Shown here in pieces: positions 31,650 to 50,900 of a stretch of DNA of 51,581 nucleotides. Source of the stretch: Candidatus Krumholzibacteriota bacterium (lineage in GTDB: Bacteria > Krumholzibacteriota > Krumholzibacteriia > LZORAL124-64-63). Location of the stretch: positions 1 through 51,581 of the forward strand of contig JBDLKA010000015.1 in NCBI GenBank assembly GCA_039714075.1, read 5' to 3'. The translations under genes were made by a program, and so were the position numbers. Positions within the stretch are counted from its first letter, which is position 1; every line of letters starts with the position of its first letter. Under the pieces are notes generated by a model. It saw only the letters and a list, made by a program, of their open reading frames with translations, searched no databases and had not been told where the DNA came from.

Positions 31650-34600
31650 CTATCGTTGCTTCATTTCCGTTTTCCCTCCCCGGCCGAATGTCCGATAGAG
31701 GGCCGGCAGAACAACGAGGGTCAGGGCGTTGGCCGACAGCACACCGCCGATAACGACGGTCGCCAGGGGCCGCTGCACCTCTGCTCCCACCCCCGTGTTC
31801 AGGGCCATGGGGACAAACCCGAGGGCGGCCACGAGGGTGGTCATCAGGACCGGCCGCAGCCGCATCAGCGCGCTGCTCTCGATGGCGTCATCCAGTGAGC
31901 ATCCCTCTCGAAGCAGCCGCCTCATGGTCGACACCATCACCAGCCCCGCCAGCATGGCCACGCCCGAGACCGCCACGAATCCGATCCCAGCCGATACCGT
32001 GTAGGGCAGGCCGCGGATCCACAGGGCCAGGATTCCGCCCAGGGTGGCGAACGGAGCGGCCATGAAAATGATCAGGGCGTCCCGCCAGGACTGGGTGCTG
32101 GAGTAGAGCAGGAACAGGATCAGGGCCAGGGCCACCGGGACAACCACCGACAGGCGGAGGCGGGCCCGCTCCATATGCTCGAATTGGCCGGCGAACTCGA
32201 GGTAGTAGCCCGAGGGCAGTTCTATCTCCGCCGCGATCCGCTCGCGGGCCTCGGCCACGAAACCCCCGACGTCCCGACCGCGCACGTTGCACTGCGCGAC
32301 GATGCGCCGGCGCTGCCACTCGCGGGTGATGGTCGAAGGCCCTTCGACCAGTTCGATGCGCGCCAGATGCTCGAGGGGAATCTGCGCCCCGGATGCCGTG
32401 GAGACCGGCATCCGGCGCAGTTTTTCCGGATCGTTCCGAATGTGTTCGGGCAGGCGAACGGCAAGGTCGAAGCGCCACTGATCCTCGCGCACTTCTCCGA
32501 CCGTCACCCCGCCCACCGCTTCAACCAGTTCGAGAACGTGTTGGGCCGGGACCCCGTGGCGCGCGATGGCCTCCTGGTCGACCCGGATCTCCATCACCGG
32601 CTGTCCGGTGATCTGCTCGACGTAGAGGTCGGCCGCGCCCGGAATCGATTCGAGGACCTCCCCCACTGCGGCCGCCGATTCGCGCAGAATCTCGAGATCA
32701 TCCCCGAAGATCTTGACGCCCACGTCGGTCCGGATGCCGGCGATCATCTCGTTGAGGCGCATCTCGATGGGCTGCGTGAAAACGACCCTCATGCCGGGCA
32801 ACCCGGAAATCTCGGCGTTCATGACCTCGACCAGTTCGTCCTGGGTCCGGGCCTTCGTCCACTGCTTCCGTGGATGCAGCGTCAGGTAGATGTCCGTCAG
32901 TTCGATCCCCATGGGGTCGGTTGCCACCTCGGCCGTACCGGTCCTGGACCAGACGTGCCGGACCTCGTCGGGGAACCTCTCGAGGATCAACTTCTCGATC
33001 CGGGTGCCGTACCTGACCGACTCCTCGAGGGAAGCGCCCGCCAGACGCACCGTGTTGATGGCCAGGCTGCCCTCCGACAGGCGCGGTATGAACTCCGATC
33101 CGATGGTCAAGCCAACAGCCCCACCCAGGGCAAGCAGGCCCAGGGTCGAAACCAGGACCAGCTTCCGGCGCTCCACCGCGAAACGGACCACCGGCCGGTA
33201 GACCCGCCCGAGCCAGGCAACCAGACGGTTCTCCTTTTCACGCGGCCGGCCTCGCAGAACGTAGCTGGCCAGGACCGGCATCAGGGTCAGCGACAGGATC
33301 AACGATCCGGCCAGGGCGAACATCAGGGTCAGGGCCATGGGCTGGAACAGCTTGCCCTCGATCCCCTCGAGCGCCAGGACCGGCAGGAACACGATGGCAA
33401 TGATCAGTTCGCCGTACATGGTCGGCTTGCGGACCTCGAGCGCGGCCTCGCGAACCGTTTCCAGGACGGTGCCCTTCCGTGCGGGGTCCTGAAGGCGTCG
33501 GACGCTGTTCTCGACCATGATCACCGAACTGTCCACGATCAGGCCGAAATCGATGGCGCCGAGGCTCATCAAGGATCCCGCGATGCCGAACCGCAGCATG
33601 CCCTGTGTCGCGAACATCATGGACAGGGGAATGGCCAAAGCCACGATCAATCCTGCCCGCAGGTCGCCCAGGAAGACGAAGAGAACCGCGACGACGAGGA
33701 TCGCGCCTTCGAACAGGTTTTCACGGACGGTTTCGAGGACCTGGTCCACCAGTTCGGTCCGCTCGTAGACCGCCTCGATCTTCACCCCGGCGGGCAGGGA
33801 CGCCTTGATCTCCTCCATGCGCTCACGCATGCGGCCGGTGACTTCGTGGCTGTTCTCGCCCATCAGCATGAAGCCCAGGCCGAGGACCACCTCGCCCCGG
33901 CCCGCTGCGGTGGCGGCTCCCCGGCGAATTTCATGGCCCTCGACGACCTCGCCGACGTCCCCGATCCGGACCGGGACCCCGTCGTGCGAGGCGATCACGA
34001 TGGCCGCGATCTCGTCCTCGTCGCGGGTCAGACTGATGCCCTGCACCAGGTGCAGTTCACCGGCCTCGACGACATAGCCGCCGCCGACATTCATGTTGTT
34101 TCGAGACAGCGCGGTGAACACGTCGTCCAGGGTCAGCCCGAACTTGACCAGCTTGTCCGGGTCGGCCAGAACCTGGTACTGCTTGCTCTCCCCACCCCAG
34201 GTGTTGACCTCGGCGACACCGGCCACCGCCTGCAGGCGGGGCTTGACGACCCAGTCGTGAAGGGTGGTCAGCTCCTGCAGCGAGTGCTCGTCGCTGGTCA
34301 TTATGTAGTGGTAGACCTCGCCCAGGCCGGTGGCCACGGGACCCATTTCGGGACGGGTTATGCCCGCCGGCAGTTCGACGGTCTGCAGACGCTCCATGAT
34401 GAGTTGCCGGGCGAAGTAGATGTCGGTGCCGTCATGGAAGGTGGCGGTCACCTGGCTCAGCCCGAACTTGGATATCGACCGCACCCCTTCCAGGTCAGGC
34501 AGACCGGCTATGGCCCGTTCGACGGGAAAAGTGATCTGCTGTTCGATCTCGAGGGGAGAGAGCGACAGGGCGGTCGTGTTGATCTGCACCTGTACCGGCG

Positions 34601-34727
34601 TCGTGTCCGGGAACGCGTCGACCGGCAGGTTCAGGACGGTGTGGACCCCCAGGCCGGCCATGACCAGCGTCAGGGCGATTACCATGAAGCGGTGATTCAG
34701 CGACCACGTTATGACGGCGTCAAGCAT
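31650..34727 (-). CDS. czcA: CusA/CzcA-family heavy-metal RND permease (DFG-type TM4)
   Basis: 'LPVDAFPD', 'SLGAIDFGLIVDSSVIMVEN', 'RLRPVLMT', 'EVQRPLATVVIGG'; 1025 aa. Confidence 0.93.
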   Translation of the reverse strand: MLDAVITWSLNHRFMVIALTLVMAGLGVHTVLNLPVDAFPDTTPVQVQINTTALSLSPLEIEQQITFPVERAIAGLPDLEGVRSISKFGLSQVTATFHDGTDIYFARQLIMERLQTVELPAGITRPEMGPVATGLGEVYHYIMTSDEHSLQELTTLHDWVVKPRLQAVAGVAEVNTWGGESKQYQVLADPDKLVKFGLTLDDVFTALSRNNMNVGGGYVVEAGELHLVQGISLTRDEDEIAAIVIASHDGVPVRIGDVGEVVEGHEIRRGAATAAGRGEVVLGLGFMLMGENSHEVTGRMRERMEEIKASLPAGVKIEAVYERTELVDQVLETVRENLFEGAILVVAVLFVFLGDLRAGLIVALAIPLSMMFATQGMLRFGIAGSLMSLGAIDFGLIVDSSVIMVENSVRRLQDPARKGTVLETVREAALEVRKPTMYGELIIAIVFLPVLALEGIEGKLFQPMALTLMFALAGSLILSLTLMPVLASYVLRGRPREKENRLVAWLGRVYRPVVRFAVERRKLVLVSTLGLLALGGAVGLTIGSEFIPRLSEGSLAINTVRLAGASLEESVRYGTRIEKLILERFPDEVRHVWSRTGTAEVATDPMGIELTDIYLTLHPRKQWTKARTQDELVEVMNAEISGLPGMRVVFTQPIEMRLNEMIAGIRTDVGVKIFGDDLEILRESAAAVGEVLESIPGAADLYVEQITGQPVMEIRVDQEAIARHGVPAQHVLELVEAVGGVTVGEVREDQWRFDLAVRLPEHIRNDPEKLRRMPVSTASGAQIPLEHLARIELVEGPSTITREWQRRRIVAQCNVRGRDVGGFVAEARERIAAEIELPSGYYLEFAGQFEHMERARLRLSVVVPVALALILFLLYSSTQSWRDALIIFMAAPFATLGGILALWIRGLPYTVSAGIGFVAVSGVAMLAGLVMVSTMRRLLREGCSLDDAIESSALMRLRPVLMTTLVAALGFVPMALNTGVGAEVQRPLATVVIGGVLSANALTLVVLPALYRTFGRGGKTEMKQR

Positions 34728-34733
34728 GGTGCA

Positions 34734-36293
34734 TCACCCCTCCTGGGAACCCGGCTGCGCTTCACAGCAACCGGCGCCGATGCTCCCCTTGAGGATCTCG
34801 GTCTTGAGAAGGAAACTCCCCTGGGTGACGACCGTTTCGCCGCCCTTCAATCCTCGCCTCACTTCGACCATCGTCCCGGTCGCCGGGCCGAGGTGGACCT
34901 TCACCGGACGGAACACGGTCGGCGAATCCTGCACGAAGACCACGTTGCAACAGCCCTCCCACTGGACTGCGGCGCGGGGCGCCACCACGGTGGGTTGGGC
35001 GTCACGCACGGTCACAACGGCCCGGGCGAACATGTTGGCCCGCAGGGAACCGTCGGGGTTGTCAAGCTCGGCCCGTGCCTCCAGGGTCCGCGTACGCGGG
35101 TCGAGATGGGCGCCGACCCACGTGATTCTGCCGGCGACCGCCTCGCCGGGCAGCCCTTCCACATGCAGAATCACGGGCTGGCCCGTCCGGATATCCCGGA
35201 TGTCCGTTTCGTAGATGTCCAGCCGGGCCCACATTCTGGTCACGTCAGCCATGGCGAACAGGGGAACCGAAGGGTTGCTAAGCTCGCCCACCGTAGCCTG
35301 GCGCTCGACCACCACGCCGGAGAAGGGGGCCGTAACCCCGTACTCGTTGGTCGTGTCTCCGGTGCGCGCCACCTCGGCAATCCGGTCGGCCGACAGGCCC
35401 AGGCCCATGAGTTCCTGCTCCGCGCGGGACTTGGCTATCCGGCTCTCTGCCAGACTGGTCTCGGCTTCCAGGAGATCGCGCTCGGTGGCCACCCCCCGGG
35501 CCAGGAGGTCCTTTTCCCGGGCGTGATTCCTGGTCCAAAGAGTTTCGGACGCCAGAGCCTGGAGGTACGCGGCCTTGGCCGCGCCGAAGGCCGGCGAAAC
35601 GATCACCGCCAGAACCTCACCCGGATCGACCAGGTCGCCCAGGTCCTTCTCCACCGATTGGACCAGGCCGCCGACCTGGGGCGCCAGGCGGGCGAAGCGG
35701 GTGCCGTCGTAGTCCAGGATCGCGTTGCACTCAAGGGTCCGCGACACGGGCTGGACCTTCACCTCCGCGAATTCCAGTCCCGCTTCCTGGGCAATCGTCT
35801 CGCGCTCGAAGGTCACCGTCAGGAGTTGGGTGGTGCACGTGACGGAGGGGGCCCGGCGGTATCGTGGTTCCGAACCGTGTTGCTCCGCTTCGACCTCACC
35901 CGGAATGGAGGTCGCCTCGGCCAGAGCCGGGTTGCAGTCCACACACCGGGATTCCGGCAGGCCGTGCCCGGCGCACCAGTCGTCGACGGCCTGGTAGGCG
36001 GCGACCATGTCGGGATTGCAGATCCAGCACAGGGCCTCGGCCACGTCGTGCCCGGCGCACCAGCCCATTTCGGCTATAAGACCGGGATTGCAGAAGGGAC
36101 AGGCCGATTCGGCGATCGCGTGTTCAGCGCACCAGTCTGCGGCCGCTACCGTCTCGCCGTGCTCGCCCGGCCCGTGGTCGTGACCCGCGTTTTCATCCAC
36201 GACCGTCTTGTCGGTGGTTCCGTCCCCGCACCCGGCCGCCGTGACGACCAGGAGGGTAATGGTCAACAAAAAAGTCTTCTTCAGGGTGTTCAT
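34734..36293 (-). CDS. RND periplasmic adaptor (CzcB-like) lipoprotein with three Cys/His repeats
   Basis: Lipobox 'AAGC'; WCxxH-x6-CxxCNP three times; MFP motifs 'VTAPFSGVVVER', 'LDPRTRT', 'LRANMF'. Confidence 0.9.
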   Translation of the reverse strand: MNTLKKTFLLTITLLVVTAAGCGDGTTDKTVVDENAGHDHGPGEHGETVAAADWCAEHAIAESACPFCNPGLIAEMGWCAGHDVAEALCWICNPDMVAAYQAVDDWCAGHGLPESRCVDCNPALAEATSIPGEVEAEQHGSEPRYRRAPSVTCTTQLLTVTFERETIAQEAGLEFAEVKVQPVSRTLECNAILDYDGTRFARLAPQVGGLVQSVEKDLGDLVDPGEVLAVIVSPAFGAAKAAYLQALASETLWTRNHAREKDLLARGVATERDLLEAETSLAESRIAKSRAEQELMGLGLSADRIAEVARTGDTTNEYGVTAPFSGVVVERQATVGELSNPSVPLFAMADVTRMWARLDIYETDIRDIRTGQPVILHVEGLPGEAVAGRITWVGAHLDPRTRTLEARAELDNPDGSLRANMFARAVVTVRDAQPTVVAPRAAVQWEGCCNVVFVQDSPTVFRPVKVHLGPATGTMVEVRRGLKGGETVVTQGSFLLKTEILKGSIGAGCCEAQPGSQEG

Positions 36294-37597
36294 CGTTCTT
36301 CTCCAATGTCGGTGTAGGGACCGGCGCCGAGCAGACTCATGAGGTCGGCCTCGGCTTGGGCAAGGTCCCGGCGCAGCTCCATCGTGCGCAGGAGTACGTC
36401 TTTGAAGGTCCGCTGGGCGTCGACCAGCTCCAGGAACATGAGGCGTCCGGCCCGGTAGGCCTCCTGGGCCTGGCTCAGGGCCCGCTCGGCCGACGGAGTG
36501 ATCCGTTCGACGAGCTGGTCCATCTGTTCATGGACAATGCGGTGGTTCAACCGGGCGGTGGACAGGGTGACTTCGAGTTCGTGAGCGGCGAGCCGTTCCT
36601 CGTGGCGGGCCATGGCCACCAGCGACGCGGCCTCGGCGACCCGGCCCTGATTGCGGTGGAAGATGGGCAGGGGAAGGCTGATCCCGCCCTCCACGAAGTT
36701 GTCCTCATCGGGCCGGGCGCGGCCATAGCCGACGAACAGGTTCAGGTCCGGGATCCGTTCCTTCTTCGCCGTCGCCAGCCTGGCTTCGGCTGCGTCGACG
36801 CCCAGGCGGACGGCCCTCAGCTCCGGGTGGCCTTCCATCTCCGCGGCGGTATCCGGCGGCAGGCTGGCTGTTTCGGCATCGGGATCGAGACTGCCGCCGA
36901 GCCGATCGGCCGGTACCTCTATTCCGCCGAGAATGACCTTCATCTCCGCGGCGCTCCGCACGCGTTTGCGTTCCAGTTCCTGCCGGGCAACCTCGAGGTC
37001 GTACACCTCGAGCAGGGCGCGCGTCACGTGGACCTCGGGGGCGGCCTTGGCCTCGTACCGTGCCCTGGCGATGGCCAGGGTCCGTTCGGCCCCGGCCGTC
37101 AATTCGTCGTAGGCCGCCTCGACCTCGCGGAAGTGAATCTGGTCGGCCCACCATTTATGGACCCGCCCCAAAGCCTTTCGGCGCGCCAGGAGCACACGTT
37201 CCCTGGCTTGATCAACTTCGGCCCCTGCCGCGTCCACCGCCGCCCCACGACGACCGCCGATCAGGAACGCCTGCGACAGTTCCACCTTCTGCTTGTTGAA
37301 GGAGGGATCGTCCACCGACATCTCCTCCACCGCGAATGAGAGTTCGGGGTTGGGGTACAGTCCCGCCTGCTGCATGCGCCCGGTCCGGGCCTCGACCTCG
37401 ATCCGGGCCAGGGCCAGATCCGGATTTGCCAGTTCGGCGATCCGGAACAGGTCCTCCAGTCCGATTTCGGGGCGGGCCAGGATCTCATCAATCTCCCGGC
37501 GGACCTCCGTCCGGGAGGCCGCCTGCCGGTCGTCTTCCGCGGCTGCGGTCATGGCCCACGCCAGGACCAGCAGCGGCAGGTACCGCAGTATCTTCAT
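36290..37597 (-). CDS. TolC/CzcC-family outer-membrane efflux protein
   Basis: Signal peptide; 'AGLYPNPEL', 'SLPLPIFHRNQG', 'YRAGRLMFLELVDAQR'. Start may be 37600. Confidence 0.9.
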   Translation of the reverse strand: MKILRYLPLLVLAWAMTAAAEDDRQAASRTEVRREIDEILARPEIGLEDLFRIAELANPDLALARIEVEARTGRMQQAGLYPNPELSFAVEEMSVDDPSFNKQKVELSQAFLIGGRRGAAVDAAGAEVDQARERVLLARRKALGRVHKWWADQIHFREVEAAYDELTAGAERTLAIARARYEAKAAPEVHVTRALLEVYDLEVARQELERKRVRSAAEMKVILGGIEVPADRLGGSLDPDAETASLPPDTAAEMEGHPELRAVRLGVDAAEARLATAKKERIPDLNLFVGYGRARPDEDNFVEGGISLPLPIFHRNQGRVAEAASLVAMARHEERLAAHELEVTLSTARLNHRIVHEQMDQLVERITPSAERALSQAQEAYRAGRLMFLELVDAQRTFKDVLLRTMELRRDLAQAEADLMSLLGAGPYTDIGEER

Positions 37598-37688
37598 CAC
37601 GCACAATCCTCTCGGACAGTTGGCGATTCATGGAGCCGGCGTCCGAAACGCCGGCCGTGATTTTTCTGAAAAAGAGGGAATCGGGGAG

Positions 37689-38051
37689 CTAGCCCCGGGG
37701 GGGATGGTAGACCGGGTCGGCATCGACCCAGGTCACGTCGGTGGCGGTGGCGACCAGGCGGCCGTCCGCGGGCAGGACCTCGTCCAGCATCTGGGCGGCG
37801 GCGGGAATCATGACCGTGCCGGAACAGCAGGGCAAACTGCAGTGCTGGCAGCCGTTCTCGCAGCGGTCGTGGTCCCGGTGACCCGGCTCCCTGCCGCAGG
37901 ACGGACCGTCGCAGGTATCGTCCAGAAAGGTGTCGCAGGGATCGACGTCGGGATGGGCGGTCATGTCACAGGCGGCATCGAGAGAAGCCGGCAACAATGT
38001 CAGGCCCATGGCCACAAGAAGGAGGATTGATATTTCCCGGGATGATTTCAT
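37689..38051 (-). CDS. Small exported Cys/His-rich protein ending YHPPRG (DUF2946/CutF-like leader candidate)
   Basis: GGAG RBS; hydrophobic N-terminus; 9 Cys including HRDHDRCENGCQHCSLPCC; first gene of the RND operon. Confidence 0.8.
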   Translation of the reverse strand: MKSSREISILLLVAMGLTLLPASLDAACDMTAHPDVDPCDTFLDDTCDGPSCGREPGHRDHDRCENGCQHCSLPCCSGTVMIPAAAQMLDEVLPADGRLVATATDVTWVDADPVYHPPRG

Positions 38052-38093
38052 GGTCTCCGTAAAATCCGGTATTCGACTCGCGATTACCCTACA

Positions 38094-38122
38094 ATCTTAG
38101 ATGGTAAATGGTTCCCGGTCAA
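38094..38122 (-). promoter_or_regulatory. Sigma70 promoter of RND operon 1
   Basis: Minus strand TTGACC - 17 bp - TAAGAT. Confidence 0.7.
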
Positions 38123-38359
38123 ATTTCGCCCCTTGCCAGGCGACCGCCACACCGTCCCGGTTTGTAAACCGAACCGGGCTCAAGACGGACTCGAGGATCC
38201 TGCGAACATGCTCCGGCGGGACCATGTTTTTTTTTGGACACAAGAATCCTCCTCGGAGTAGACTTCAATCGACAACTTAAGCTGTCAGGCAAGGTCTGGT
38301 ATTGCTGCACGATGTAGGATTGCAAGGGGCGGATAATAATGAGGAAGTGGAGACCGCAA

Positions 38360-41300
38360 ATGGGTCGTTGTAGCCTGGGGATGCCGGGGTTTCCCGCCCG
38401 CACATTGAGGACCCTCTCGTTCGCCTTGATCCTGCTTGCCTGTACCCCGGTTTTGGAGGGACTGGCCGGGACCGGCACCCTTTCGCCGGGAACCTCTTCC
38501 GGCTGGGACCAGTTGTTCGAAAACCGGTTCAAGTCGGCCGAAACGGAGTTTCGCCAGGCGCTGGAAGCCGATGACGAGGACTTCAAGGCGAGGCAGGGCC
38601 TGATCGTGGCTCTCCTCTGCCTGGGCAAGGACGACGAACTGCTGGCCCAGGTTGCCGAAATGGCGCGTGAGCCGTCCCTGGATCCCAATGATCTTCTCCT
38701 GCTTGCTTTCATGACCAGGCATACGGGACTGTCATCGCAGGATTACTTCGAGGCGCTGCTCGAGTACGCGAAACGCTCCAGCAAGGAAAAATCCGTCGGA
38801 GTCCTGGATCGCCGACTCTACAGGAACCTGGCCCTGGACTATGCCGCCCAGGCGGGATTGTCCGACGAGGTCGCCGAGCTTGGAACGGCCCTCGGGCGCG
38901 TTACGCGGTGGGCCGTCCTGGGACCGTTCGACAACACCTCGGGCTCGGGCCATCAGCGCCGGTACATCCAGTCGTTTCTGCCCGATGATCGCAAGCACAT
39001 CGGAAAGATGGGGCAGTCCCTGCAGTGGTTCTTCCCGGAACTGATCGGAGTGGACGGGACCCTGACCCCGGCCAACCACTTCTATCACAAGCAGGACATA
39101 ACAGCGTATGCGCGCACGGTGGTCGATGTCCCCCGTGACGGGACATACCTTGTTTCGCTGGCTTACGAAGGCGACGTGCAGTTACTGGTCGACGACGTCA
39201 CGATCCACGACGAGCGCAAGGGCCGAACGGCTAAGGAAAATCTCCACTGGCATGTCAAGCTTGCGGCCGGGGCTCACGAGATCATCGCCAAGATTTCGAG
39301 CAGGGAGGCCCCGGGCCGCTTTGCCTTCAGCATCACCGAGACTGACGGCACCCTCATCAAGGATCTGAAGGTGGATCCAGGAAGTTCCACGGATCGTGAT
39401 ATGGCCGCACGTCCGGTGTTCGAATCCAGGACCCCCCAGGTCTTCTGGAAATTCCTGTCGCAAAAAACCGGGTCCACCGCCAACCGCGAGGCTGATTTCT
39501 GGAAGGTCTACTTCAGCTTTTGGGACCAAAGTCCGGAGGCGGACCAGACCTTCCAGACCCTGGTGAATCGGCACCGGGGATCGGCGTTGATCATGCTCGC
39601 TGCCGCGGATGCCCTGGGCATGCAGGGCCGGACCGCGGAAGCGCGGCAGCACATCGAACGGGCATGCAGGATCCACTCCGACCTGGCGCCTGCGGTCCTG
39701 GCCCGAGCCGAGAGCCACATGACCAACGGAAGGTACGATCTGGCCGGCGATCTGGCCGACGGAATCCTGCGGACTGCTCCGGACTGCCGTCAGGCCCTGT
39801 GGATCAAGTACCAGTGCCTTGAGAAGGACCTCCGTTTCGCCGACCTGGGGCGGGAGGCGGCCCATGCGGCCGAACGCTTCCCCGACGAGCCGCTGGGATA
39901 CCATTATCAGGCGATTGCCGCGGCGAGCCTCGGGGAATCCCGGAAGGCGGCCGATTACCGCGACAAGGCCCTGAAGCTGTTCCCCCCGGGGTCGACTCAT
40001 TTCCAGCAGGCCATGCAGAGCATCGACGAAGCCGGACTGAAAAAATCACGCGGACGGCTCAAGGACCTGGCCGAAAAGCTTCCGGACCAGGAATTTCTCT
40101 GGAATGCCTATCTCCACTCCCTTACCGCCGCCGAGAAGATCGACGATACCATTGATGTCCTGAACAGGCTGGCCCCGTCCTTTCCGCAGAGTCTGGATTT
40201 CCTGTCCCTGAAAGGCCTGATTGCCGAGGCCGGGTACTTCGTTGATGAATCCCGGTTCAAAAATTTCTGGCTGGGGATGGAAATCGACCTCACCGAGGCG
40301 GAATTCGCCAGGATGTATCCCGTATCACCGCGGCCGGAAAGCCACCGGGTCAGGTTCGAACACGGCGTGACCCTGGAGAAATTCATCAAGATCTGGGCAA
40401 AGGAGAACGCCGCCCGGCATTTCGAGGCCGCCCTGGCCGTGGCTCCGGGGAATTTCGAGGTTCGCAACAAGGTCCAAATGCTCAAGGGGAAGAGCGACCT
40501 CCGCAACTACCTGCCCGATGTCGATCCCGATGGTCTGCCCCCGTTGCGTTGCCGGCCCGAGGATCGGCCCGATGACGATGCGGTCATCATCAAGGACTGG
40601 CGCCGGCGTTTCGTATATGACGAGAACGCCAGCATTGCGGACCGGATCGTGGTCGTCCAGGTCCTCAACCAGGCCGGGATCGAAAAGTGGGAGAGTCAAC
40701 TGGTCCCCTTCAGCACGTATCTGAACAGGATGACGGTCGTCTCGGCCATGACGATCAAAACGGACGGAACGTTCATCGACGCCGAGACGGCCGGACCGGC
40801 CGTCCTGTTCCCCCGTCTCGAGCCCGGAGACGTCACCTTTTTTCATTACCGGGTCATCACCTACCACACCGGCCATCTCGCGGGCCAGTTCTGGGACCAT
40901 CATGTATTTGCCTACGAGGACCCCTGTTTGAATTCCCGGTTCACCCTTGTTTATCCGAGATCGATGTCACCCCTCTTCCAGGTGCTCAACGATCCCGAGG
41001 ATTTCTTTGTGATGAAGAACGAGGCGATTCTCGACGAGGACTACCGCACCATCCGCTGGTCCAGTCGCAGCAATCCCGTGCTGGTGAAAGAACCCCTGAG
41101 CGCGCAGCCACGGGCTCACCGACCCTGGGTCGACGTATCAACCATCGATTCCTGGTCCACGATATCGCGTTGGTACAACGATATCGCCGACGGACAGGCC
41201 GTCATCACGCCCGAAGTGGAGACGAAGGCAAAGGAGATCACCCGTGATTGCGCCGATGATCCGGCCAGGTACCGGGCAATCTGCGATTTCGTCGCCAACC

Positions 41301-42346: not shown

Positions 42347-42525
42347 CGGTAGGTGATAGCCCCAACTCCCTCATAGCAGGCTTGCCCTGAAACAAGCGGA
42401 CGACGCGTTGCCATCACAAGTTTCGAATATTCGATGATAAGAGGATTGTATTCCTCTGGTTTTTGTGAGACAATACGCTTCTCATTGTGGGGGCTCAGGG
42501 GAGGGATTACTGCGGAGAGTCGTCC

Positions 42526-44562
42526 ATGACCCGGAGGTCCATCATGCCCCGAGCCGCCATCACCCTGCTTTTCTTCCTGCTATCGGCAAGCGTCGCCGCG
42601 GGTGGCCCCCTGACCGACAAGGGAACCCAGCCCGGTCTGACCTATCCCATGAATACCCCCGGCGACTGCGCCGGCTGTCACGGCCAATACGATGGCGTCA
42701 ACAATCTCGAGCCGTGGGACACCTGGGCGGGATCGTTGATGGCCCAGGCGGGACGGGACCCCATTTTCTGGGCTGCCTTGGACGTGGCGAACAACGACTT
42801 GCCCGGTGTCGGGGATTTTTGCCTTCGCTGTCACGCCCCCACGGGGTGGCTCGACGGCCGCTCCGAACCACCGGGCGGCTCCCCCGACGGTTGCGGTCTC
42901 GAGGGCAAACTCGACGAGACAAACAAGGATTTCGACGGCTTGACCTGCCATTTTTGCCACCGGATGATGGTCAATCCCTCACCTCCGGCCGGAGAGGATC
43001 CCGTATATTTCGAGAATGGCCAGTTCTGGATCGACGATACCGACTGCGCGGGCGCCGGTGAACCTTGCCGTCGGGGACCCTACGATTATCCCGCCGACGG
43101 CGCCTCGCCTCCCCCGCACGCCTGGGCTTTTTCTCAGTATCTCGAGGATTCCGACATCTGCGGGAATTGCCACAACGTCACCAATCCGGTCAAGACACTC
43201 ATTCAGAACGGCGTGGACACGGGCATCCCCTACCCGATCGAACGCACCTTCATGGAGTGGCAGCAGAGCGATTTCTCGAACCAGGCGTCGCCGGAGTTCA
43301 AGACTTGCCAGAATTGCCATATGCCGGATTCGGCGGCTGATCCGGCCTTCGTCTGCAGCGATATGCAGAACAACCACACCGGCGATCTGCCGATCCATCA
43401 ACTCGCAGGCGGCAACTCCTGGATCCCCGAGGTCCTGCGCCAGGAATACCCCAACCTGAACCTCGACCTGGAACTGGCCGCGACCCGGGATTGGGCCCTG
43501 GACATGTTGCAGAACCAGTCCGCGACCGTCGCGGTCATCACTCCGGCCGACGTTACCGAAGGCGGCGACCTGGTCGCCCAGGTCCAGGTGACCAACCTGA
43601 CCGGCCACAAACTGCCCACCGGTTATCCTGAAGGGCGACGGCTCTGGCTGAACGTGCAGGCCCGCGACGGCCTGAACAACCTCATCTGGGAATCGGGACT
43701 CTACGACATGTCGACCGGAATCCTGACCCAGGACCCCCAGATCAAGGTCTACGAGGCCAAACCGGGCATCTACAACAACAACGGTACGGGCGAATGCGAT
43801 TGCGAGGACGGTGCGGGCAACCCGATGTTCCACTTCGTGCTCAATGACTGTTACGAACTGGACAACAGGATTCCGCCCCTGGGATTCACCGGCATGAGCG
43901 ACCCCGAGACCCAGCCGGTGAACTATTCGTATCCGGAGACGTCGCCCGGTTCGGGCATCCTGGTAAACTACGATACCACCGGGTACAGCGTGCCCGTCCC
44001 GGTGGGTACGGTTTCACCTTTGACCATTTCGGCCACGCTCTACTACCAGACCATCAGCAAGGAATACGTCGAGTTCCTGGAAACCGAGGCGATAACCAAC
44101 GGATTCCCCAACGACTGCATCGAACGCTCCTCGGGCTTCCCGACGAAAACACGTGCCGGTCTGCTCAAGGACATGTGGCTGGCCTACGGAAAATCGGCCC
44201 CCGTGGACATGGGAACGGACGCGGCGGCGGTTTCGGTGACCTCGGTCTCCGGCGTGGGCATCGACGATGGCAACCTTTCGCTTTACCTGCACCAGAACAG
44301 TCCCAATCCCATCGAGCCCACGGGTCTCGGCACCCGTATAGCCTTCCGGCTGCCGCATGACCAACAGGTACGCATTGACGTGTTCGACCTCCGCGGCCGT
44401 CACGTACGCACCCTGTTCGACGGCCGGGAAACCGCCGGTGCGCACAGCATTTTCTGGGATGGTCGTGACGGGAACGGCAGAATTGTCAGTTCCGGTGTCT
44501 ACGCCTACACCTTGAAAACGAATTCCGAAGTGTTGAGGCGTCGGATGGTCGTAGTCAGATAA
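42526..44562 (+). CDS. Secreted multiheme c-type cytochrome (5 CxxCH) with FlgD-Ig C-terminal domain
   Basis: CAGCH, CLRCH, CHFCH, CGNCH, CQNCH; 'GHKLPTGYP'; C-terminal 'QNSPNP...WDGRDGNGRIVSSGVY'. Confidence 0.9.
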   Translation: MTRRSIMPRAAITLLFFLLSASVAAGGPLTDKGTQPGLTYPMNTPGDCAGCHGQYDGVNNLEPWDTWAGSLMAQAGRDPIFWAALDVANNDLPGVGDFCLRCHAPTGWLDGRSEPPGGSPDGCGLEGKLDETNKDFDGLTCHFCHRMMVNPSPPAGEDPVYFENGQFWIDDTDCAGAGEPCRRGPYDYPADGASPPPHAWAFSQYLEDSDICGNCHNVTNPVKTLIQNGVDTGIPYPIERTFMEWQQSDFSNQASPEFKTCQNCHMPDSAADPAFVCSDMQNNHTGDLPIHQLAGGNSWIPEVLRQEYPNLNLDLELAATRDWALDMLQNQSATVAVITPADVTEGGDLVAQVQVTNLTGHKLPTGYPEGRRLWLNVQARDGLNNLIWESGLYDMSTGILTQDPQIKVYEAKPGIYNNNGTGECDCEDGAGNPMFHFVLNDCYELDNRIPPLGFTGMSDPETQPVNYSYPETSPGSGILVNYDTTGYSVPVPVGTVSPLTISATLYYQTISKEYVEFLETEAITNGFPNDCIERSSGFPTKTRAGLLKDMWLAYGKSAPVDMGTDAAAVSVTSVSGVGIDDGNLSLYLHQNSPNPIEPTGLGTRIAFRLPHDQQVRIDVFDLRGRHVRTLFDGRETAGAHSIFWDGRDGNGRIVSSGVYAYTLKTNSEVLRRRMVVVR

Positions 44563-44606: not shown

Positions 44607-45032
44607 ATGAGCCTGCACAGCAAAAAACCCAATAGAGCCCTGTGGCTGGGTCTTTCCCTGATCCTGCCCGTGTTGTATTTCCTGCAAGCAGCACCTCATG
44701 CTCACCAGGCTCACGACCAGCCCGAATCCCACCAGGCATCCGGGTCACATTCGCACCATACCCATACCCATTCCCATGACGATCACGATAGCGAAGGTCC
44801 GGACGCGACACATCACCATCATGCCCTGACGAATCATCTCGACTCTCACGTTTCCCAGACCCCCAACCGGGGATCGAGTCCCGATCCCGGGATCTCGATG
44901 GTGGTCGTTTCTGCAGGTTATGGGATTCTTGACCGGAAGACCCGATTCAGGTCTCCCGAGTCGCCCGACCCGCCGCCCCAGGCGCCTCCGCTTGTCACCC
45001 GTGGTCCCCGAGCACCTCCCCGCCTCGGCTGA
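44607..45032 (+). CDS. Small exported His-rich protein ending RAPPRLG (ribosome-arrest leader candidate)
   Basis: Hydrophobic N-terminus; 17 His in about 50 aa; no Cys; Pro-rich linker; RAPP at 45009-45020. Confidence 0.82.
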   Translation: MSLHSKKPNRALWLGLSLILPVLYFLQAAPHAHQAHDQPESHQASGSHSHHTHTHSHDDHDSEGPDATHHHHALTNHLDSHVSQTPNRGSSPDPGISMVVVSAGYGILDRKTRFRSPESPDPPPQAPPLVTRGPRAPPRLG

Positions 45033-45086: not shown

Positions 45087-46349
45087 ATGTTGCACCGTAC
45101 CCATCGGTCGGTCACCGTCACGCTGTCTGTCCTGGGAGCCCTCATACTGGGGGCCTCAGGGTCAAGTACCGCTTCGACAGCACCGGTGAACGACGTTTCC
45201 ATACGATTCGAGGACATTGAATCGTTTGCGCGCGCCGAGAGCCCCCGCGCTCGGATCATCGCCCAGAAACTGGCCGCTGCCACCGCTGAGCAGGACCGCG
45301 ACCTGCAGTGGTCGAATCCCTCTTTGGCGTATGATCACGAGGAAAACGAGAGCTTTCGTGAATGGCAGTTGACGCTGCACAAACGATTCGAGATGCCCTT
45401 CTCACAAGCCGGTCTGAGAGACGGCTGGGAGGGCACGATTCGCGCTGAGGAACTCCGGGGAAAACAGGAATCGGAAAATCTTCTGGCGGAGCTCAAGGGC
45501 GGTTATGTACGGCTTCGGCTCTTCGAGAACTACCTCGACCGCCTGAAACGTCTCGCCGGGTTGGTGGATCTGGCTGCCACCGTGGCAGACGAGAGATACA
45601 CCGAAGGTGAGCTGTCCGGGACCGAAAAACAACTGATCCAGCTTGCAGCCTTCTCCGTGGATGCCACCAGCCGTCGAATCCAGCAGGAGCATCGTCAGGA
45701 CGCTGCATTCTGGCGCGCCGAGATGGGCCTCTCTTCCATGGTCACCGTTGACCTGGTCACGCCTGTAACATTTCTGCCGTTCGAGTTGGACGGACCTGAT
45801 GCATACGCCGCCATGGTTTCCCATCGTCCCGGTCTCCAGGCTCAGGCAACCCTTGCCCAGGCCCTCGGCAGTCAGGCAGAGGCCGCTCGTCCCGACATCG
45901 TTCCCGGCATGGATATCCATGGGGGCTACAAGAGCTTCGCTTCGGAACTGAACGGTTTCGTGGCCGGCATCGCAGTCGACCTGCCCTTTTTCGACAGGAA
46001 TGCCGGCGCATCCAAGCGGCTCGAAGCCGAAAGGCTGATTGTCGAGCACGAAATGGCCATCTCCATGGCCCGTTCCCGGAATGAAATTGCCGCCCTGATC
46101 GACGCAATCACCGCAGCCCAGGCCCCACTCGCCGGGTTCACCGAACGCCTGGACCAGGGTCCGCCATTGGCTGAGACACTGCTCTTCTCCTACCGGGAAG
46201 GGTCCATAACTCTCGACGCCCTGCTGGGAGCGATCCAGATCGAATCATCAGCGGTCGAGGACTACTTCGCCGAGTTGACCGCCTACTACATGAATATCTT
46301 CCGGCTGGAATCCATGACGGGCGCCACCATCGTCCGTTTCGCGCCTTAG
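45087..46349 (+). CDS. TolC/CzcC-family outer-membrane efflux protein
   Basis: Signal peptide; 'WSNPSL', 'DLPFFDRNAG', 'YREGSITLDALL'. Confidence 0.88.
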   Translation: MLHRTHRSVTVTLSVLGALILGASGSSTASTAPVNDVSIRFEDIESFARAESPRARIIAQKLAAATAEQDRDLQWSNPSLAYDHEENESFREWQLTLHKRFEMPFSQAGLRDGWEGTIRAEELRGKQESENLLAELKGGYVRLRLFENYLDRLKRLAGLVDLAATVADERYTEGELSGTEKQLIQLAAFSVDATSRRIQQEHRQDAAFWRAEMGLSSMVTVDLVTPVTFLPFELDGPDAYAAMVSHRPGLQAQATLAQALGSQAEAARPDIVPGMDIHGGYKSFASELNGFVAGIAVDLPFFDRNAGASKRLEAERLIVEHEMAISMARSRNEIAALIDAITAAQAPLAGFTERLDQGPPLAETLLFSYREGSITLDALLGAIQIESSAVEDYFAELTAYYMNIFRLESMTGATIVRFAP

Positions 46350-46358
46350 GAGAACGAC

Positions 46359-47891
46359 ATGAAACGAATTTTGCACATTTCACTGGCCCTGTTCCTGATC
46401 CTGGCCGCCCCGGCTCTGGCCCAAGACGGGCAGGATCACGGGCATGACCACTCCACGACCCCGGACGGTCACGGCGACGCCCACGCTCACGACGCCGAAA
46501 CGCCCAGCGTCGCGGTTACGCAATGGACGGAATCCATGGAACTGTTCATGGAGCATCCGGTGCTTTTGACCGGCCATTCCGCTCGATTCATCATTCACCT
46601 GACAATCCTGGATGGTTTCCAGCCTGTCAGAGAGGGTTCCGTATCGCTCCTTTTCCGGGGACCCACCGGGGCCAGTCACAGGGTCTTTGCCAGTGAACTG
46701 CTCAGGGATGGGATCTTTACCCCATCGGTCAGCTTGCCGCGGGCCGGTGCTTACGAATTCGAGCTCAGCTACAGCGGACCAGGCGCCACCAGTACGTTCC
46801 ACATCCAGGATTTCGTCGTTTACGCCGATGCGGACGCCATCCCGGGCGAGACCGCGGCGGAAACGGCCGACGAGATCGCCTTCCTCAAGGAACAGCAGTG
46901 GAAAATCCCCTTCGCGACCTCTCCGGCTACGGAACGAGAGATCAAAAGCGCCGGGTGGGCGATCGGTGAGGTCCTGCCTTCGCCGACGGCCTACGCGGAA
47001 ATTGTCGCTCCCGTCGACGGTGTCATTCAGGCCGGTGACGCCGGTGATCTGGCCCTGCCTGGCTCATATGTCACCAGGGGCGAAGTCGTGGCACGGATTG
47101 CGCCGCCGCTCCAGGGGGACGGCTGGGCATCATCACAACTGGCCCTCGCCCAGGCGGAGCGGAACTTCGAGCGTGCCGAACGGCTGCGCGAGAAGGACGC
47201 CATCTCGACTCGCGAATACGAGGAAGCCCAGAACGAATACCTGGCGCGCAAAGCCGGTCATCAGCGTCTGGCCGGCAGCGGCAACGACGGCATCCTGAGT
47301 TTGACCGCACCCATCAACGGTCAAGTCATCGACTGGCAGGTACGCCCCGGCCAACGCCTCCAGGCCGGTGACAAGTTGATGGCCATCGCCGATCCGAGCG
47401 CCGTCTGGCTCAAGGTCAATGTCTATGAAAACGACTACCGGCGCCTGGGAACGCCCGTGGGAGCCTACGTACATTCCGGCGGCGAAGTTGAAGGATGGGC
47501 GATTCCCGAGTCCGACATGAGGGTTCTGACGACAGGCGGGGCGCTGGATCCGGTGACACGCACCATCCCCGTTCTGATCGAGGTCACCAATACGGCGGGA
47601 CGACTGACCATCCATGAAACCACGCCGGTTGAGCTCTACGCGAGCGAAGGCGCCATGGCCACGGCCGTGCCGCGGTCGGCCGTCTATGAGGACGAGGGGC
47701 TGGATGTGGTCTTCGTCCAGTCCAGCGGCGAATCGTTCGCCAAGCGGGTCGTCGAAGTAGGCCCCCGCCACGCCGGCTGGGTCAGCATCCTGGCAGGCAT
47801 CCAACCGGGGGAGCGCGTCGTAACCAGGGGCGGCTATCACGTGAAACTCGCCTCCACTTCTGCGGAGATCGGTCACGGCCACGCGCACTGA
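46359..47891 (+). CDS. RND periplasmic adaptor (CzcB-like) with His-rich ends and an extra N-terminal domain
   Basis: AGGAG RBS; 'DHGHDH...HGDAHAHD'; 'LTAPINGQV', 'LDPVTRT', 'GIQPGERVVTRGG'; C-terminal HGHAH. Confidence 0.9.
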   Translation: MKRILHISLALFLILAAPALAQDGQDHGHDHSTTPDGHGDAHAHDAETPSVAVTQWTESMELFMEHPVLLTGHSARFIIHLTILDGFQPVREGSVSLLFRGPTGASHRVFASELLRDGIFTPSVSLPRAGAYEFELSYSGPGATSTFHIQDFVVYADADAIPGETAAETADEIAFLKEQQWKIPFATSPATEREIKSAGWAIGEVLPSPTAYAEIVAPVDGVIQAGDAGDLALPGSYVTRGEVVARIAPPLQGDGWASSQLALAQAERNFERAERLREKDAISTREYEEAQNEYLARKAGHQRLAGSGNDGILSLTAPINGQVIDWQVRPGQRLQAGDKLMAIADPSAVWLKVNVYENDYRRLGTPVGAYVHSGGEVEGWAIPESDMRVLTTGGALDPVTRTIPVLIEVTNTAGRLTIHETTPVELYASEGAMATAVPRSAVYEDEGLDVVFVQSSGESFAKRVVEVGPRHAGWVSILAGIQPGERVVTRGGYHVKLASTSAEIGHGHAH

Positions 47892-47922
47892 CCGACGGAC
47901 TGGTGAAATGAAAGGCTGAACA

Positions 47923-50900
47923 ATGTTGGACAAGCTGATGCAGACCAGTCTGCAAAACCGCCTGATCGTCCTGCTGGGAGCCCTGGCAACCTTCGGGATA
48001 GGCGCGTATATCACGCTCGAAATGCCCATCGATGTCTTTCCGGACCTGACGGCGCCGACGGTTTCAATCATGACCGAGGCTCACGGCATGGCTCCCGAGG
48101 AAGTTGAAATGCTCGTTACCTTCCCCATCGAGACTTCCGTCAACGGAGCCTCCGGGGTCCGGCGGGTGCGATCGAATTCAATCCAGGGGCTGTCCACGGT
48201 ATGGGTGGAATTCGACTGGGGAACGGACATCCATATCGCGCGGCAAATCGTCAATGAAAAGCTGCAGATCATGCGGAACACGCTGCCCGAAGGCGTGGAT
48301 CCACCGGTGCTGGCTCCGATCACGTCGATCATGGGCGAGATCATGCTGGTCGGCCTGACGGCCACGGAAACATCATCGATGGAGCTGCGCACCCTGGCGG
48401 ACTTCACGGTAGCCCGCCGGATCCAGTCGGTGCCGGGTGTGTCGCAGGTGCTCGTCTACGGCGGCGAAACCCAGCAGTATCAGGTCCAGGTGGACCCCTA
48501 CAAGGTCGCCGCACGGGGGCTGACATTGGCCCACGTCCTGAAGGCGGTCGCAGAATCGAACATCAACGCCACGGGCGGCGTGTTCGTCGAATCCGGACAG
48601 GAATTCCTGATTCGTGGTTTGGGGCGGGTCCGCAACGTAATGGACATCGAACGGACCGTCGTCAGCGTTCAGGACCGGGTGCCCGTCCTGGTCAAGGATG
48701 TGGCGGAAGTCACCGTTGCGCCGGCTTTCAAACTCGGTACGGCCTCTATCAGCAATCAGGACGGAGTCCTGTTGGTGGTGGCCAAGCAACCTGAGGCGAA
48801 CACCCTTGTCCTGACAGAGGAGATCCTGGCCGCCCTGGGCCGGATGGAAGACTCCCTGCCGCCGGACATCACCCTCCATACCGACATTTTCCGGCAGGCG
48901 GATTTCATCGAAGTGGCGGTGGACAACGTGGTCAAGGCGCTGCGCGACGGAGCGATCCTGGTCATGGTCATCCTCTTCCTGTTCCTCCTCAATGTGCGCA
49001 CGACCCTGATCTCCGTCGTGGCCATCCCGCTGTCCCTGGTCGTCGCATTCCTCGCCATGCGCATATTCGGATTTTCGGTCAACACCATGACCCTCGGCGG
49101 CATGGCCATCGCCATCGGAGTGCTCGTCGACGATGCCGTAATCTACGTCGAGAACGTCTACCGCCGGATCCGCCAGAACACCGGCCGTCCGGAACAGGAG
49201 AGACGTCCTTTCGACGAGGTCGTGGCCGGAGCTTCGAGCGAGATACGTTCGCCCATCGCCATGGCCACCTTCATCGTCATCGTGGTCTTCATTCCCTTGT
49301 TCTTCCTGGGCGGTATCGAGGGCCGCATGCTCAAACCCCTGGGGTTCGCCTACGTCGTGTCGATCCTGGCTTCGTTGCTGGTCGCCATGACCGTGACGCC
49401 GGCACTTTGTTCATTCCTGCTGCGGGGTGTCTCGCGCGACGAGAAGCGCCGCGAGAGTTGGCTCGTCCGGCACCTGAAATCCCTTTACGAACCGAGCCTG
49501 GGATACGTCCTGAAACATCGGGGAATCGTGATCAGCGGATCGGCGATACTGGTCGTCGCGGCGCTGGCAGTCCTTCCGTTCTTCGGCCGAGCCTTCCTGC
49601 CCGAGTTCAACGAGGGCACGTTCAACATCTCCATGGCCACCCTGCCGGGAACCTCGCTCCAGGAATCGGATGAGCTGGGCAGGATGCTCGAAACCATCCT
49701 TCTGGCCAACGACGCCGTGGTCTCGACGGCCCGCCGAACCGGCCGCACGGAACTGGACGAACATTCCCTGGGGTCGCACGCTCACGAACTCGAGGTTCAG
49801 CTGGATCTGTCCCGAAAGTCGAAAACCGAAGTCCTCGAGGAACTTCGCAGTGCTCTGATGTTGGTCCAGGGCACGAACATCACCATCGGCCAGCCTATTT
49901 CCCATCGCATCGACCACATGCTCTCGGGCACACGGGCCGCCATCGCCGTCAAGCTGTATGGCTCCGATCTATATGAACTGCGGAAGTTCGCTGAAAGCAT
50001 CCGGCAGGAAATGGTCGAGATCGAAGGCCTGGTCGATCTCTTCGTCGATCAGCAGACCGATGTGCCCCAGGTGAGGATCCAAGCCGACCGGGAGCGGATG
50101 GCCATGTATGGGCTGCGGCCGACCGACCTGGACGAGCTGATCGACTTGGCGTTTCTGGGTGTCACGACTTCCCAGGTCTACGACGGTGAGCACCGCCACG
50201 ACCTGGTCGTTCGCTTTGCCCCCCAGTATCGCGGCGATCTGGAATCCATCCGCAGAACCCTCATCGACACCCCTAACGGCGGTCCCATCCCGCTGGAGAT
50301 GGTCGCGGACATCCGCATCGACCGGGGGCCCAACTACATCAGCCGGGAGAACGTGCAACGCAAGATCGTGATCCAGGCCAACGTGGCCGGACGCGACCTT
50401 CGGGGCGCCGTCGAGGAGATCCGCGAGAAGATCGGCAACAACATCGACTTGCCGCAGGGCTACTTTGTCGAGTTCGGTGGTCAGTTCGAAAGTGAAGAAC
50501 GCGCCACCCGCACCGTGACCTGGTTGAGTCTCGTTTCGCTCATCGCCATCATGGTTGCCCTGTACCTCGAGTTCGGCAATTTCCGTCAGGCCACTCTGGT
50601 CATGGTCAACCTCCCCTTGGCGCTTATCGGCGGTATCGTGAGCGTTTTCCTGACCGAGGGCATCATTTCGATCGCTTCTTTGGTCGGGTTCATAACCCTG
50701 TTCGGCATTGCCGTGCGAAACGGAATCCTGATGGTCTCCCACTACAACCATCTTATGGATGAAGAGGGCGTTCCCTTGCGGACCGCGGTCATCCAGGGTT
50801 CGCTGGAACGATTGAGTCCCATTCTCATGACGGCCATGACAACCGGCCTGGCGCTGGTGCCCCTCGCCCTGGCCGGGGACAAGCCGGGGTCCGAACTGGA

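Follow-up and report, generated by a model that had tools for sequence, protein, structure and literature searches.

What does the short open reading frame (ORF) at the head of a heavy-metal efflux operon encode, and does its product act as a finished protein or on the ribosome that is making it? The question is raised by a 51,581-nucleotide stretch of DNA from a Candidatus Krumholzibacteriota bacterium (positions 1 to 51,581 of contig JBDLKA010000015.1, assembly GCA_039714075.1; hereafter the window), in which a 120-residue, cysteine-rich ORF ending in YHPPRG precedes the genes of an RND-type metal pump. The explanation that we favor, at a probability of about 0.6, is that this ORF is a cis-acting metal-sensing arrest leader, resembling CutF, CruR and CopL, of an operon with the order leader-czcC-czcB-czcA. 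Leaders of this kind are already known, and their occurrence before RND pumps has been reported on bioinformatic grounds; the present branch, with a distinct HPPR-x-stop motif, appears to be undescribed. To our knowledge, metal sensing by a nascent chain has been shown experimentally for only two systems, the copper-responsive CutF and CruR, and the present locus is a compact test case that combines the HPPR motif, a six-Cys cluster and a pump whose transmembrane segment 4 (TM4) carries a motif like that of divalent-cation transporters.

Architecture of the leader ORF

The elements on which the argument rests are the following.

38094..38122, minus strand: sigma-70-like promoter, TTGACC-17 nt-TAAGAT (9 of 12 consensus matches)
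38055..38058, minus strand: Shine-Dalgarno (SD) sequence of the leader, GGAG, 3 nt 5' of the ATG (sequence reading)
37689..38051, minus strand: leader ORF, 120 amino acids plus stop, ATG at 38051 (ORF translation and homologues)
37971..38051, minus strand: signal-peptide-like N-terminus, residues 1-27, comprising MKSSRE, the hydrophobic core ISILLLVAMGLTLL and PASLDAA (hydropathy and an AlphaFold2 helix)
37824..37865, minus strand: Cys cluster, residues 63-76 (R-C-ENG-C-QH-C-SLP-CC), conserved in alignments
37689..37709, minus strand: C-terminal Y115-H-P-P-R-G plus stop, candidate arrest motif (family conservation)

A first-pass annotation of the window had described a promoter, a 120-residue ORF with a signal-like N-terminus, and a Cys cluster 40 residues before a terminal Pro-Pro, and all of these, like every other feature that it listed, were found in the window sequence where it had placed them. 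The predicted leader (MKSSREISILLLVAMGLTLL...HRDHDRCENGCQHCSLPCC...YHPPRG-stop) starts with the positively charged MKSSRE, followed by a 14-residue hydrophobic core with a Kyte-Doolittle 11-mer peak of 2.8 over residues 7-17; the remainder, which contains HRDHDRCENGCQHCSLPCC, is acidic and rich in Cys and His, with 9 Cys, 5 His and 17 Asp+Glu within the approximately 93 residues of the mature chain. The codons of P117 and P118 occupy 37703-37701 and 37700-37698, respectively. The gap to P117 is 40 residues when measured from C76, the end of the cluster, and 45 when measured from C71, the last Cys of CQHC, which lies 43 residues from Y115. Promoter-like sites are more frequent in the region than in shuffled sequence (two seen, 0.2 expected), and in the closest related locus (L001, below) TTGACC-17-TAGAAT can be recognized by eye in the same place. 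A lipoprotein reading of the N-terminus was rejected, as LDAAC and LEAAC do not fit the lipobox and the Cys in question is Tyr in many relatives, as judged by eye.

Conservation of the terminal motif and its spacing

A word-indexed search recovered 27 relatives (E 4e-50 to 1e-26), none of them named and none with a Pfam domain, and when a profile was run against 1.84 billion cluster representatives, 93 proteins were listed at E <= 1e-3, of which 24 lay at <= 1e-10. The results were pooled into a set of 119 proteins, which draws on both searches and includes the window protein, two 40-residue fragments and a few divergent tails. The first-pass annotation had made conservation of the terminal HPP in homologues one of the points on which its proposal would turn, and that conservation is extensive: the last Pro-Pro stands exactly two residues before the stop in 112 of the 119, and HPPx occurs in 95 of these 112. 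The four-residue word around the prolines is HPPR in 83, RPPR in 11, HPPQ in 8, PPPR in 3, RPPQ and HPPN in 2 each, and something else in the other 3. Preferences extend to the flanking positions of the same 112 proteins, with His (84%) or Arg (12%) at -5, Arg (86%) or Gln (9%) at -2, Ile or Leu (82%) at -7 and Tyr or Phe (74%) at -6. The profile itself contains the motif, and the search thus favors its carriers; the position of the protein end is not forced by it.

The distance between the two conserved elements is likewise fixed. Between the final Cys of CxxC and the first Pro there are 45 residues in 93 of the 119 and 44-48 in 20; CxxC is absent at that distance in six, two of which are the 40-residue fragments. 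A hydrophobic 12-mer lies near the N-terminus in 109 of the 119. The family consensus for the cluster is CCxxGCxxCxLPCC; among 28 close sequences C68, C71, C75 and C76 are invariant with C63 and C64 retained in at least 90%, and in the wider alignment of 94 sequences C76 remains invariant while C39, C64, C68, C71 and C75 are kept in at least 90%. Distant members are only 16-30% identical to the window protein, yet C76, P117 and P118 are invariant among them. The likeness to CruR and CutF that the first-pass annotation had pointed out, consisting of a signal-like N-terminus, Cys cluster, a fixed spacing and a Pro-Pro before the stop, is therefore a conserved property of the family.

The close relative P0028 (135 residues, on a 474-kb contig) is family-like to approximately residue 97 and then diverges, ending without a terminal HPP, probably through a frameshift or faulty assembly. 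In P0069, P0093 and P0096 the protein likewise continues beyond the motif.

One scan of genome contigs yielded two loci besides the window, one (L001) in a metagenome-assembled genome (MAG) of an uncultured bacterium, with 74% identity, and the other (L002) in a MAG labelled Candidatus Krumholzibacteriia, with 43% identity and a leader ending in EHPPRV. Over the last 58 codons the window and L002 share 7 identical codons and differ by 18 synonymous and 33 non-synonymous ones. The HPPR codons are CAT CCC CCC CGG in the window and CAC CCC CCT CGC in L002, three of the four differing. Since HPPR is retained despite synonymous codon changes, selection is judged from these sequences to act on the leader peptide.

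Genomic context of the leader

The genes that follow the leader are these.

36290..37597, minus strand: outer membrane efflux protein (OEP), CzcC/TolC-like (Pfam OEP, 5.8e-47)
34734..36293, minus strand: periplasmic adaptor, CzcB-like, with a Cys-repeat N-terminal extension (HlyD_D23, 5.2e-49; TIGR01730, 145.4 bits against a cut-off of 94.9)
31650..34727, minus strand: heavy-metal RND permease, CusA/CzcA family (TIGR00914, 1193.5 bits against a cut-off of 701.45)

Permease, adaptor and OEP thus lie in one operon, as expected of a heavy-metal efflux (HME) RND operon of the czcCBA type. The best NCBIfam name for the OEP is IhpA, a divalent metal exporter, and that for the adaptor is IhpB, each below its cut-off; the adaptor start and the OEP stop overlap by 4 nt. 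The leader stop (37691-37689) and the OEP ATG at 37597 are separated by 91 nt, the length that the first-pass annotation had given, and the corresponding spacers measure 90 nt in L001 and 93 nt in L002. The order leader, spacer, OEP, adaptor, RND permease is the same in all three loci, as is the start context GGAGA[CT]C-ATG of the leader.

Inspection of eight neighboring ORFs, covering approximately 12 kb around the operon, revealed no two-component, MerR/ArsR or extracytoplasmic function (ECF) regulator. In Caulobacter, the czrCBA operon is reported to be transcribed from a promoter ahead of CCNA_02805, a small gene in front of czrC that might be a leader of this kind, and no regulator is described close to it (PMC3637150). 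A tblastn search of plasmids with the leader gave only two chance matches (E 0.3), both in Croceicoccus, and a plasmid search with the relative P0114, aimed at annotated CopL, gave no match.

Relation to curated families and predicted structure

The affiliation of the leader family could be traced only through matches below threshold. No family member reaches the Pfam or NCBIfam cut-offs. A Pfam scan of the 28 close sequences at E <= 10 returned just three weak matches to 'Oxidored-like', and DUF2946 (PF11162) gave none at E <= 10 for the window leader and its 27 close relatives. The distant relatives were scanned as a set of 92 proteins that counts the second leader of the window (see below); of the 91 relatives in it, four give sub-threshold DUF2946 matches, the strongest scoring 20.5 bits where the gathering score is 23.7 (E 8.8e-4), aligned over positions 3-115 of 117. 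CopL_fam (NF033807, 'CopL family metal-binding regulatory protein') shows no match to the window leader and matches 21 of 94 relatives nearly end to end, never reaching its cut-off of 40 bits; the top match scores 28 bits (E 2.9e-6) and runs to profile position 127 of 129. Among the nearest family-bearing clusters of the ESM Atlas is one in which 26% of members carry DUF2946, and a search with P0111 for a bridge to annotated DUF2946 proteins found five proteins, none with a Pfam domain. The family lies outside both curated families, and because the sub-threshold matches occur in its distant members it is best regarded, from these profile comparisons, as a remote and so far unannotated offshoot of the DUF2946/CopL/CutF-like group.

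Prediction suggests that the mature chain is unstructured. An AlphaFold2 model built on the 94-sequence alignment has a mean predicted local distance difference test (pLDDT) score of 62.8 and a predicted template modelling score (pTM) of 0.24, with a helix at residues 4-19, which coincides with the core of the putative signal peptide, as its sole secondary structure, and the ESM Atlas model of the leader has a pLDDT of 0.46. A profile search of all Protein Data Bank (PDB) sequences returned nothing below E 0.1; a single 4Fe-4S ferredoxin at E 0.11 was taken as a chance match of Cys patterns and set aside.

These features bear on a different explanation, in which the ORF encodes a finished periplasmic protein that binds metal and acts in trans, whether as a chaperone, a buffer or a CzcI-like regulator (one possibility being transfer of metal onto the Cys-rich N-terminal part of the adaptor), and in which HPPRx is a contact or degradation signal. 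The signal-like N-terminus and the wealth of Cys, His and acidic residues in the mature chain would suit such a role, as would the conservation along the full length of the protein, C39 included, and the three WCxxH...CxxCNP repeats of the neighboring adaptor. CzcI, which occupies the same position in its operon, is moreover described as devoid of a C-terminal Pro motif (PMC9973294). However, no fold is predicted beyond residue 19 and no relative exists among PDB sequences, and the combination of a Cys cluster, a motif two residues from the stop and a 45-residue spacing is a hallmark of CruR for which no need is apparent in a soluble binding protein. We regard a role purely of this kind as unlikely, and note that activity in trans is compatible with activity as a leader.

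Comparison with known nascent-chain sensors

The closest experimental parallel is CruR (Bp2923) of Bordetella pertussis, described as a poorly structured DUF2946 product encoded by an upstream ORF, with CXXC at residues 90-93 and RAPP at 139-142, three residues from its end and 45 residues apart (C93 to R139) (PMC9426467). According to the same report, the spacing is held within 1-2 residues over more than 2000 DUF2946 members, copper control of the downstream transporter requires both motifs and the spacing, and control operates through Rho, whose rut site falls within a C>G bubble that stretches across the 3' portion of cruR and on into the spacer (PMC9426467). In vitro work has demonstrated arrest at RAPP, the third and fourth motif residues then occupying the P and A sites (PMC12992588). 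The leader described here has the conserved CXXC (C68-Q-H-C71) and shares with CruR the spacing of about 45 residues, a Pro-Pro 2-3 residues before the stop, an export signal (putative here), poor predicted structure, the first position in the operon and a C>G bubble. It differs in carrying [YF]HPP where CruR has RAPP, which occurs nowhere in the family. CruR represses an importer and copper relieves the arrest, whereas here an exporter follows, from which we expect the opposite polarity. Furthermore, CruR is independent of its signal peptide, is followed by a 162-nt spacer and has been shown in vitro to arrest, whereas arrest by the present leader is a prediction.

The second parallel is CutF of Rhodobacter capsulatus (cutFOG), also with 45 residues between its motifs (PMC9973294), which is reported to act only in cis; its spacing, it has been argued, brings the metal site into the vestibule of SecY on the periplasmic side (PMC9973294; bioRxiv 10.1101/2025.02.05.636593). 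Both proteins are shorter than 150 residues and have a Sec-type signal (putative here), a Cys metal motif with further Cys upstream of it, and a Pro-Pro near the C-terminus; both have the 45-residue spacing, are encoded by the first gene of a metal-detoxification operon, and are followed by a spacer of less than 100 nt with a stem-loop that shields the SD sequence of the next gene. The differences lie in the tail (HPPR-x-stop here, PPP-containing in CutF), the metal motif (CCxxGCxxCxLPCC versus CxxxC) and the target (a czcCBA-type pump versus a multicopper oxidase), as well as in the position of the SD hairpin, approximately 90 nt from the Pro codons here, and in the lack of a DUF2946 match at threshold. 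In the survey that defined CutF-like proteins, RND OEPs (CusC/CzcC/SilC) are described as the commonest neighbors of the Cys-type members, with TonB-like proteins and PCuAC chaperones named after them, and RND metal pumps, the commonest predicted targets, as mechanistically untested (PMC9973294). The window leader falls within the filters of that survey for length (120 residues, less than 150), Pro-Pro position (P117-P118 of 120) and spacer (91 nt), and its family may already be present in the CutF-like catalogue (PMC9973294). The suggestion of the first-pass annotation that CruR/CutF logic has been applied to an efflux pump is the best-supported reading of the locus, although the idea as such had already been published on bioinformatic grounds (PMC9973294).

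Two further small proteins occupy similar positions. CopL of Xanthomonas and Stenotrophomonas (copLAB) is described as a small Cys/His-rich ORF needed in cis for metal induction of the next gene (PMC9973294); its family model, NF033807, is the closest curated one by profile comparison, with the end-to-end matches described above, but the downstream gene is the copper oxidase gene copA in that system and encodes an RND pump component here. CzcI of Cupriavidus metallidurans (czcNICBADRS), directly upstream of czcCBA, is placed in CutF-like sequence similarity network cluster 20 and has been suggested to be a metal-sensing regulator (PMC9973294); as far as can be compared by description, its operon position is alike, but the Pro motif is absent from it.

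The terminal motif also recalls SecM, ApdA/ApdP and the RQH family, small secreted proteins with an extreme C-terminal Pro motif that are encoded upstream of a presumed target gene. Arrest motifs of this group include RAPP, RGPP, RAGP, RAPG, HAPP and QAPP, among others (Fujiwara et al., PMC10987492). The downstream genes here are not components of Sec or YidC, and the sequence is Y-H-P-P rather than R/H/Q-A/G-P-P, with the His adjoining the prolines instead of standing two positions before them. The literature searches made here turned up no study of such a leader before RND genes by experiment and none naming an HPP-type motif, and 'HPP' is absent from the main text of PMC9973294, PMC12992588 and PMC10987492.

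Structure and composition of the spacer RNA

How a pause at the end of the leader might be read out downstream depends on the 91 nt between leader and OEP, in which three elements were recognized.

37657..37688, minus strand: C-rich, G-poor tract directly 3' of the stop, including CCUCUU (37677-37672), with C12 and G2 in 32 nt
37634..37656, minus strand: mid-spacer G+C hairpin with an 8-bp perfect core at 37635-37655 (folding, 3 of 3 loci)
37596..37627, minus strand: local hairpin enclosing the OEP SD sequence GAGAGGA (37613-37607) and the A and U of AUG (37597-37595) (folding, 3 loci)

The perfect 8-bp hairpin noted in the first-pass annotation is present and recurs in all three loci. Its core has 8 pairs, 7 of them G-C, around a loop of 5 and extends to 10 pairs; the energies are -18.0, -14.8 and -12.4 kcal/mol for the window, L001 and L002 (z -3.56, -1.64 and -2.37), and for the window none of 200 shuffles folds as well. 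The SD hairpin, at -11.1, -12.3 and -8.7 kcal/mol (z -2.47, -2.02 and -1.66), takes in the first two bases of the start codon in the window and L001, and in the partition function of each locus the SD core GGA pairs with an adjacent UCC at a probability of 0.94-0.99. A consensus fold of the three loci by RNAalifold keeps both hairpins and drops a distal helix.

This last helix is the one required by an RNA switch that the first-pass annotation had proposed, in which CCUCUU (37677-37672) pairs with GAGAGG of the SD sequence (37613-37608) across the hairpin and a ribosome paused at Pro-Pro frees the SD sequence. The two hexamers are complementary, with six pairs including one G-U, and a C/U-rich tract follows the stop in all three loci, but the predicted probability of the pairing is near zero: for the four 5' SD bases the best partner probability is 0.0 in the window and none exceeds 0.05 in any locus. 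The distal helix is missing from the minimum free energy (MFE) structures of all three loci as well as from the consensus, and the long-range helices of the MFE structures differ between the window and L001. In addition, a ribosome with P117 in the P site covers to approximately 37688, short of 37677, and masking the RNA in this way alters nothing in the predicted fold. Such a switch we consider very improbable.

The composition of the leader end and spacer offers another route. The 32 nt after the stop contain C12 and G2 in the window and C10/G4 and C15/G2 in the other two loci; 32-nt windows with at least 12 C and at most 2 G make up 0.09% on this strand. When composition was scanned in sliding windows of 78 nt, as had been done for CruR, all three loci showed a C>G bubble (C 44-47%, G 17-24%) centered on the putative stall site and stop, in such a position that a ribosome paused there, together with others lined up behind, would occlude the greater part of it. 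Its composition is that of a Rho-loading region, which remains only a lead, because the choice of Pro, Ala, Thr and Asp codons would give a similar composition.

Other searches of the region can be summarized briefly. In an Rfam scan of 37300-38500 (E <= 1) the sole match, to the P15 small RNA, lay on the opposite strand at 18.6 against 70 bits and was put down to chance. An intrinsic terminator was considered and rejected, as a T-run follows the hairpin on the plus strand only, antisense to the operon, and there is no U-run on the operon strand. Read on the plus strand, the hairpin at 37635-37655 is terminator-like; the operon strand shows an A-run before it, which is found also in L001 and not in L002.

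Proposed mechanism and its weighing

In the mechanism that we propose, a single promoter would drive the whole operon, and the leader would be translated and exported co-translationally via Sec through its signal peptide. The ribosome would slow at H116-P117-P118, two codons before the stop, at which moment the Cys cluster, 45 residues upstream, would be just out of the tunnel and translocon. Binding of metal by the cluster, or its folding or oxidation, could then alter the pulling force on the nascent chain and with it the dwell time of the ribosome. A CutF-like polarity would be expected, such that metal prolongs the pause and pump expression rises. For the coupling, protection of the C-rich, G-poor Rho-loading region at the stall site, as in CruR, would be favored over melting of the SD hairpin. 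The link from the pause to czcC expression is the weakest step of this scheme.

Several observations weigh against an arrest leader, or against particular steps. Export, stalling, metal binding, polarity and coupling are steps that we infer. The genomic context comes from three loci, the remaining relatives being protein records without DNA. The window leader has no match to any curated family in Pfam and NCBIfam scans, and YHPP is not among the RAPP-like motifs given by Fujiwara et al. (PMC10987492). The mature N-terminal part is conserved too (C39 in at least 90%, and an acidic composition), which could mean that the product functions as a finished protein. Residue 63 of the window leader (37863-37865, minus strand) is Arg, where at least 90% of the 27 close relatives have Cys. 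The identity of the metal is a guess made from sequence: it would be a thiophilic divalent ion (Zn or Cd), though it may also be copper. On the side of the RNA, the structures show no compensatory changes, which with three sequences says little. The SD hairpin lies 89-92 nt from the P-site Pro codon, and in a thermodynamic model the accessibility of the SD sequence in the window is 0.25, both unmasked and with a ribosome masked in at the Pro-Pro codons or at the stop. Because of this distance of approximately 90 nt, and because masking leaves the predicted accessibility unchanged, direct melting of the SD hairpin by a paused ribosome is unlikely according to the model.

The Cys of the relatives at residue 63 is the first of a CC pair, the context reading RCENGC in the window and CCETGC in relatives.

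A further explanation is that the locus encodes a real small exported protein whose terminal Pro-Pro causes no regulatory pause, the operon being controlled by a distant transcription factor or by the SD hairpin alone, which would hold OEP translation constantly low. Many PP and RAPP-like sequences do not stall, according to the arrest-motif study (PMC10987492), the SD hairpin is self-contained, and the inspection for regulators covered approximately 12 kb around the operon. Under this explanation, however, the near-invariant [IL][YF]HPPRx-stop and the 45-residue spacing have no account, while identity falls to 16-30%; we think it improbable, and more so than a protein acting in trans. If stalling does not occur, the leader is simply an unannotated small exported Cys-rich protein.

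A second candidate leader and the possible specificity of the two pumps

The window contains a second RND operon (45087-51009, plus strand), which is likewise preceded by a leader-like frame. This 141-residue ORF (44607-45032, plus strand) has a hydrophobic N-terminal segment and a long His-rich stretch, ends in GPRAPPRLG-stop and is separated from its OEP gene by a 54-nt spacer. The two relatives found of it both end in GPRAPPLQG, and in all three proteins RAPP stands three residues from the end, as in CruR. The Cys-type and His-type leaders have no detectable similarity to each other (hhalign probability 0.6%).

The adaptors of the two operons differ in a corresponding manner. Adaptor 1 (34734-36293, minus strand), which follows the Cys-type leader, has three WCxxH...CxxCNP repeats at residues ~53-122, and adaptor 2 (46359-47891, plus strand), which follows the His-type leader, has QDGQDHGHDH...HGDAHAHD at residues ~20-50; no Pfam domain covers either N-terminal extension. 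That two unrelated leaders have the same architecture, each matching the ligand chemistry of its own adaptor, argues that the architecture is functional. With an already validated RAPP motif in the adjacent His-rich leader, a comparison of the pair could show how ligand chemistry sets metal specificity, and could also distinguish a translational from a Rho-dependent read-out.

The TM4 motif of permease 1 (31650-34727, minus strand) is DFGLIVDSSVIMVEN, and that of permease 2 (47923-51009, plus strand) is AIGVLVDDAVIYVEN, which we take to resemble the CusA type. As judged from sequence, the differing motifs suggest different substrate classes for the two permeases. The signature DFGX3DGAX3VEN is given for TM4 of the divalent-cation HME1 and HME2 groups of RND proteins, after Nies 2003 (cited from PMC3637150); DFGLIVDSSVIMVEN has both Asp and the Glu of this signature, with SS in place of GA.

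From these elements a wider proposition can be assembled, that regulated arrest motifs include a separate class, [IL][YF]HPPR-x-stop, carried by a large unannotated family of exported six-Cys leaders which would respond during translation to thiophilic divalent metals and turn on HME-RND pumps; that this genome would hold two orthogonal nascent-chain sensors (Cys/HPPR and His/RAPP), each mirroring the metal-binding extension of its own adaptor; and that the pause would protect a rut-like C>G region rather than melt the SD hairpin. Taken as a whole this is speculative, and we would sooner expect one or more of its parts to fail than all of them to hold.

Between the two pump operons lies a gene (42487-44562, plus strand) whose 691-residue product contains numerous CxxCH-like motifs, bears an FlgD Ig-like domain at its C-terminus and gives a weak MtrC/MtrF-like match.

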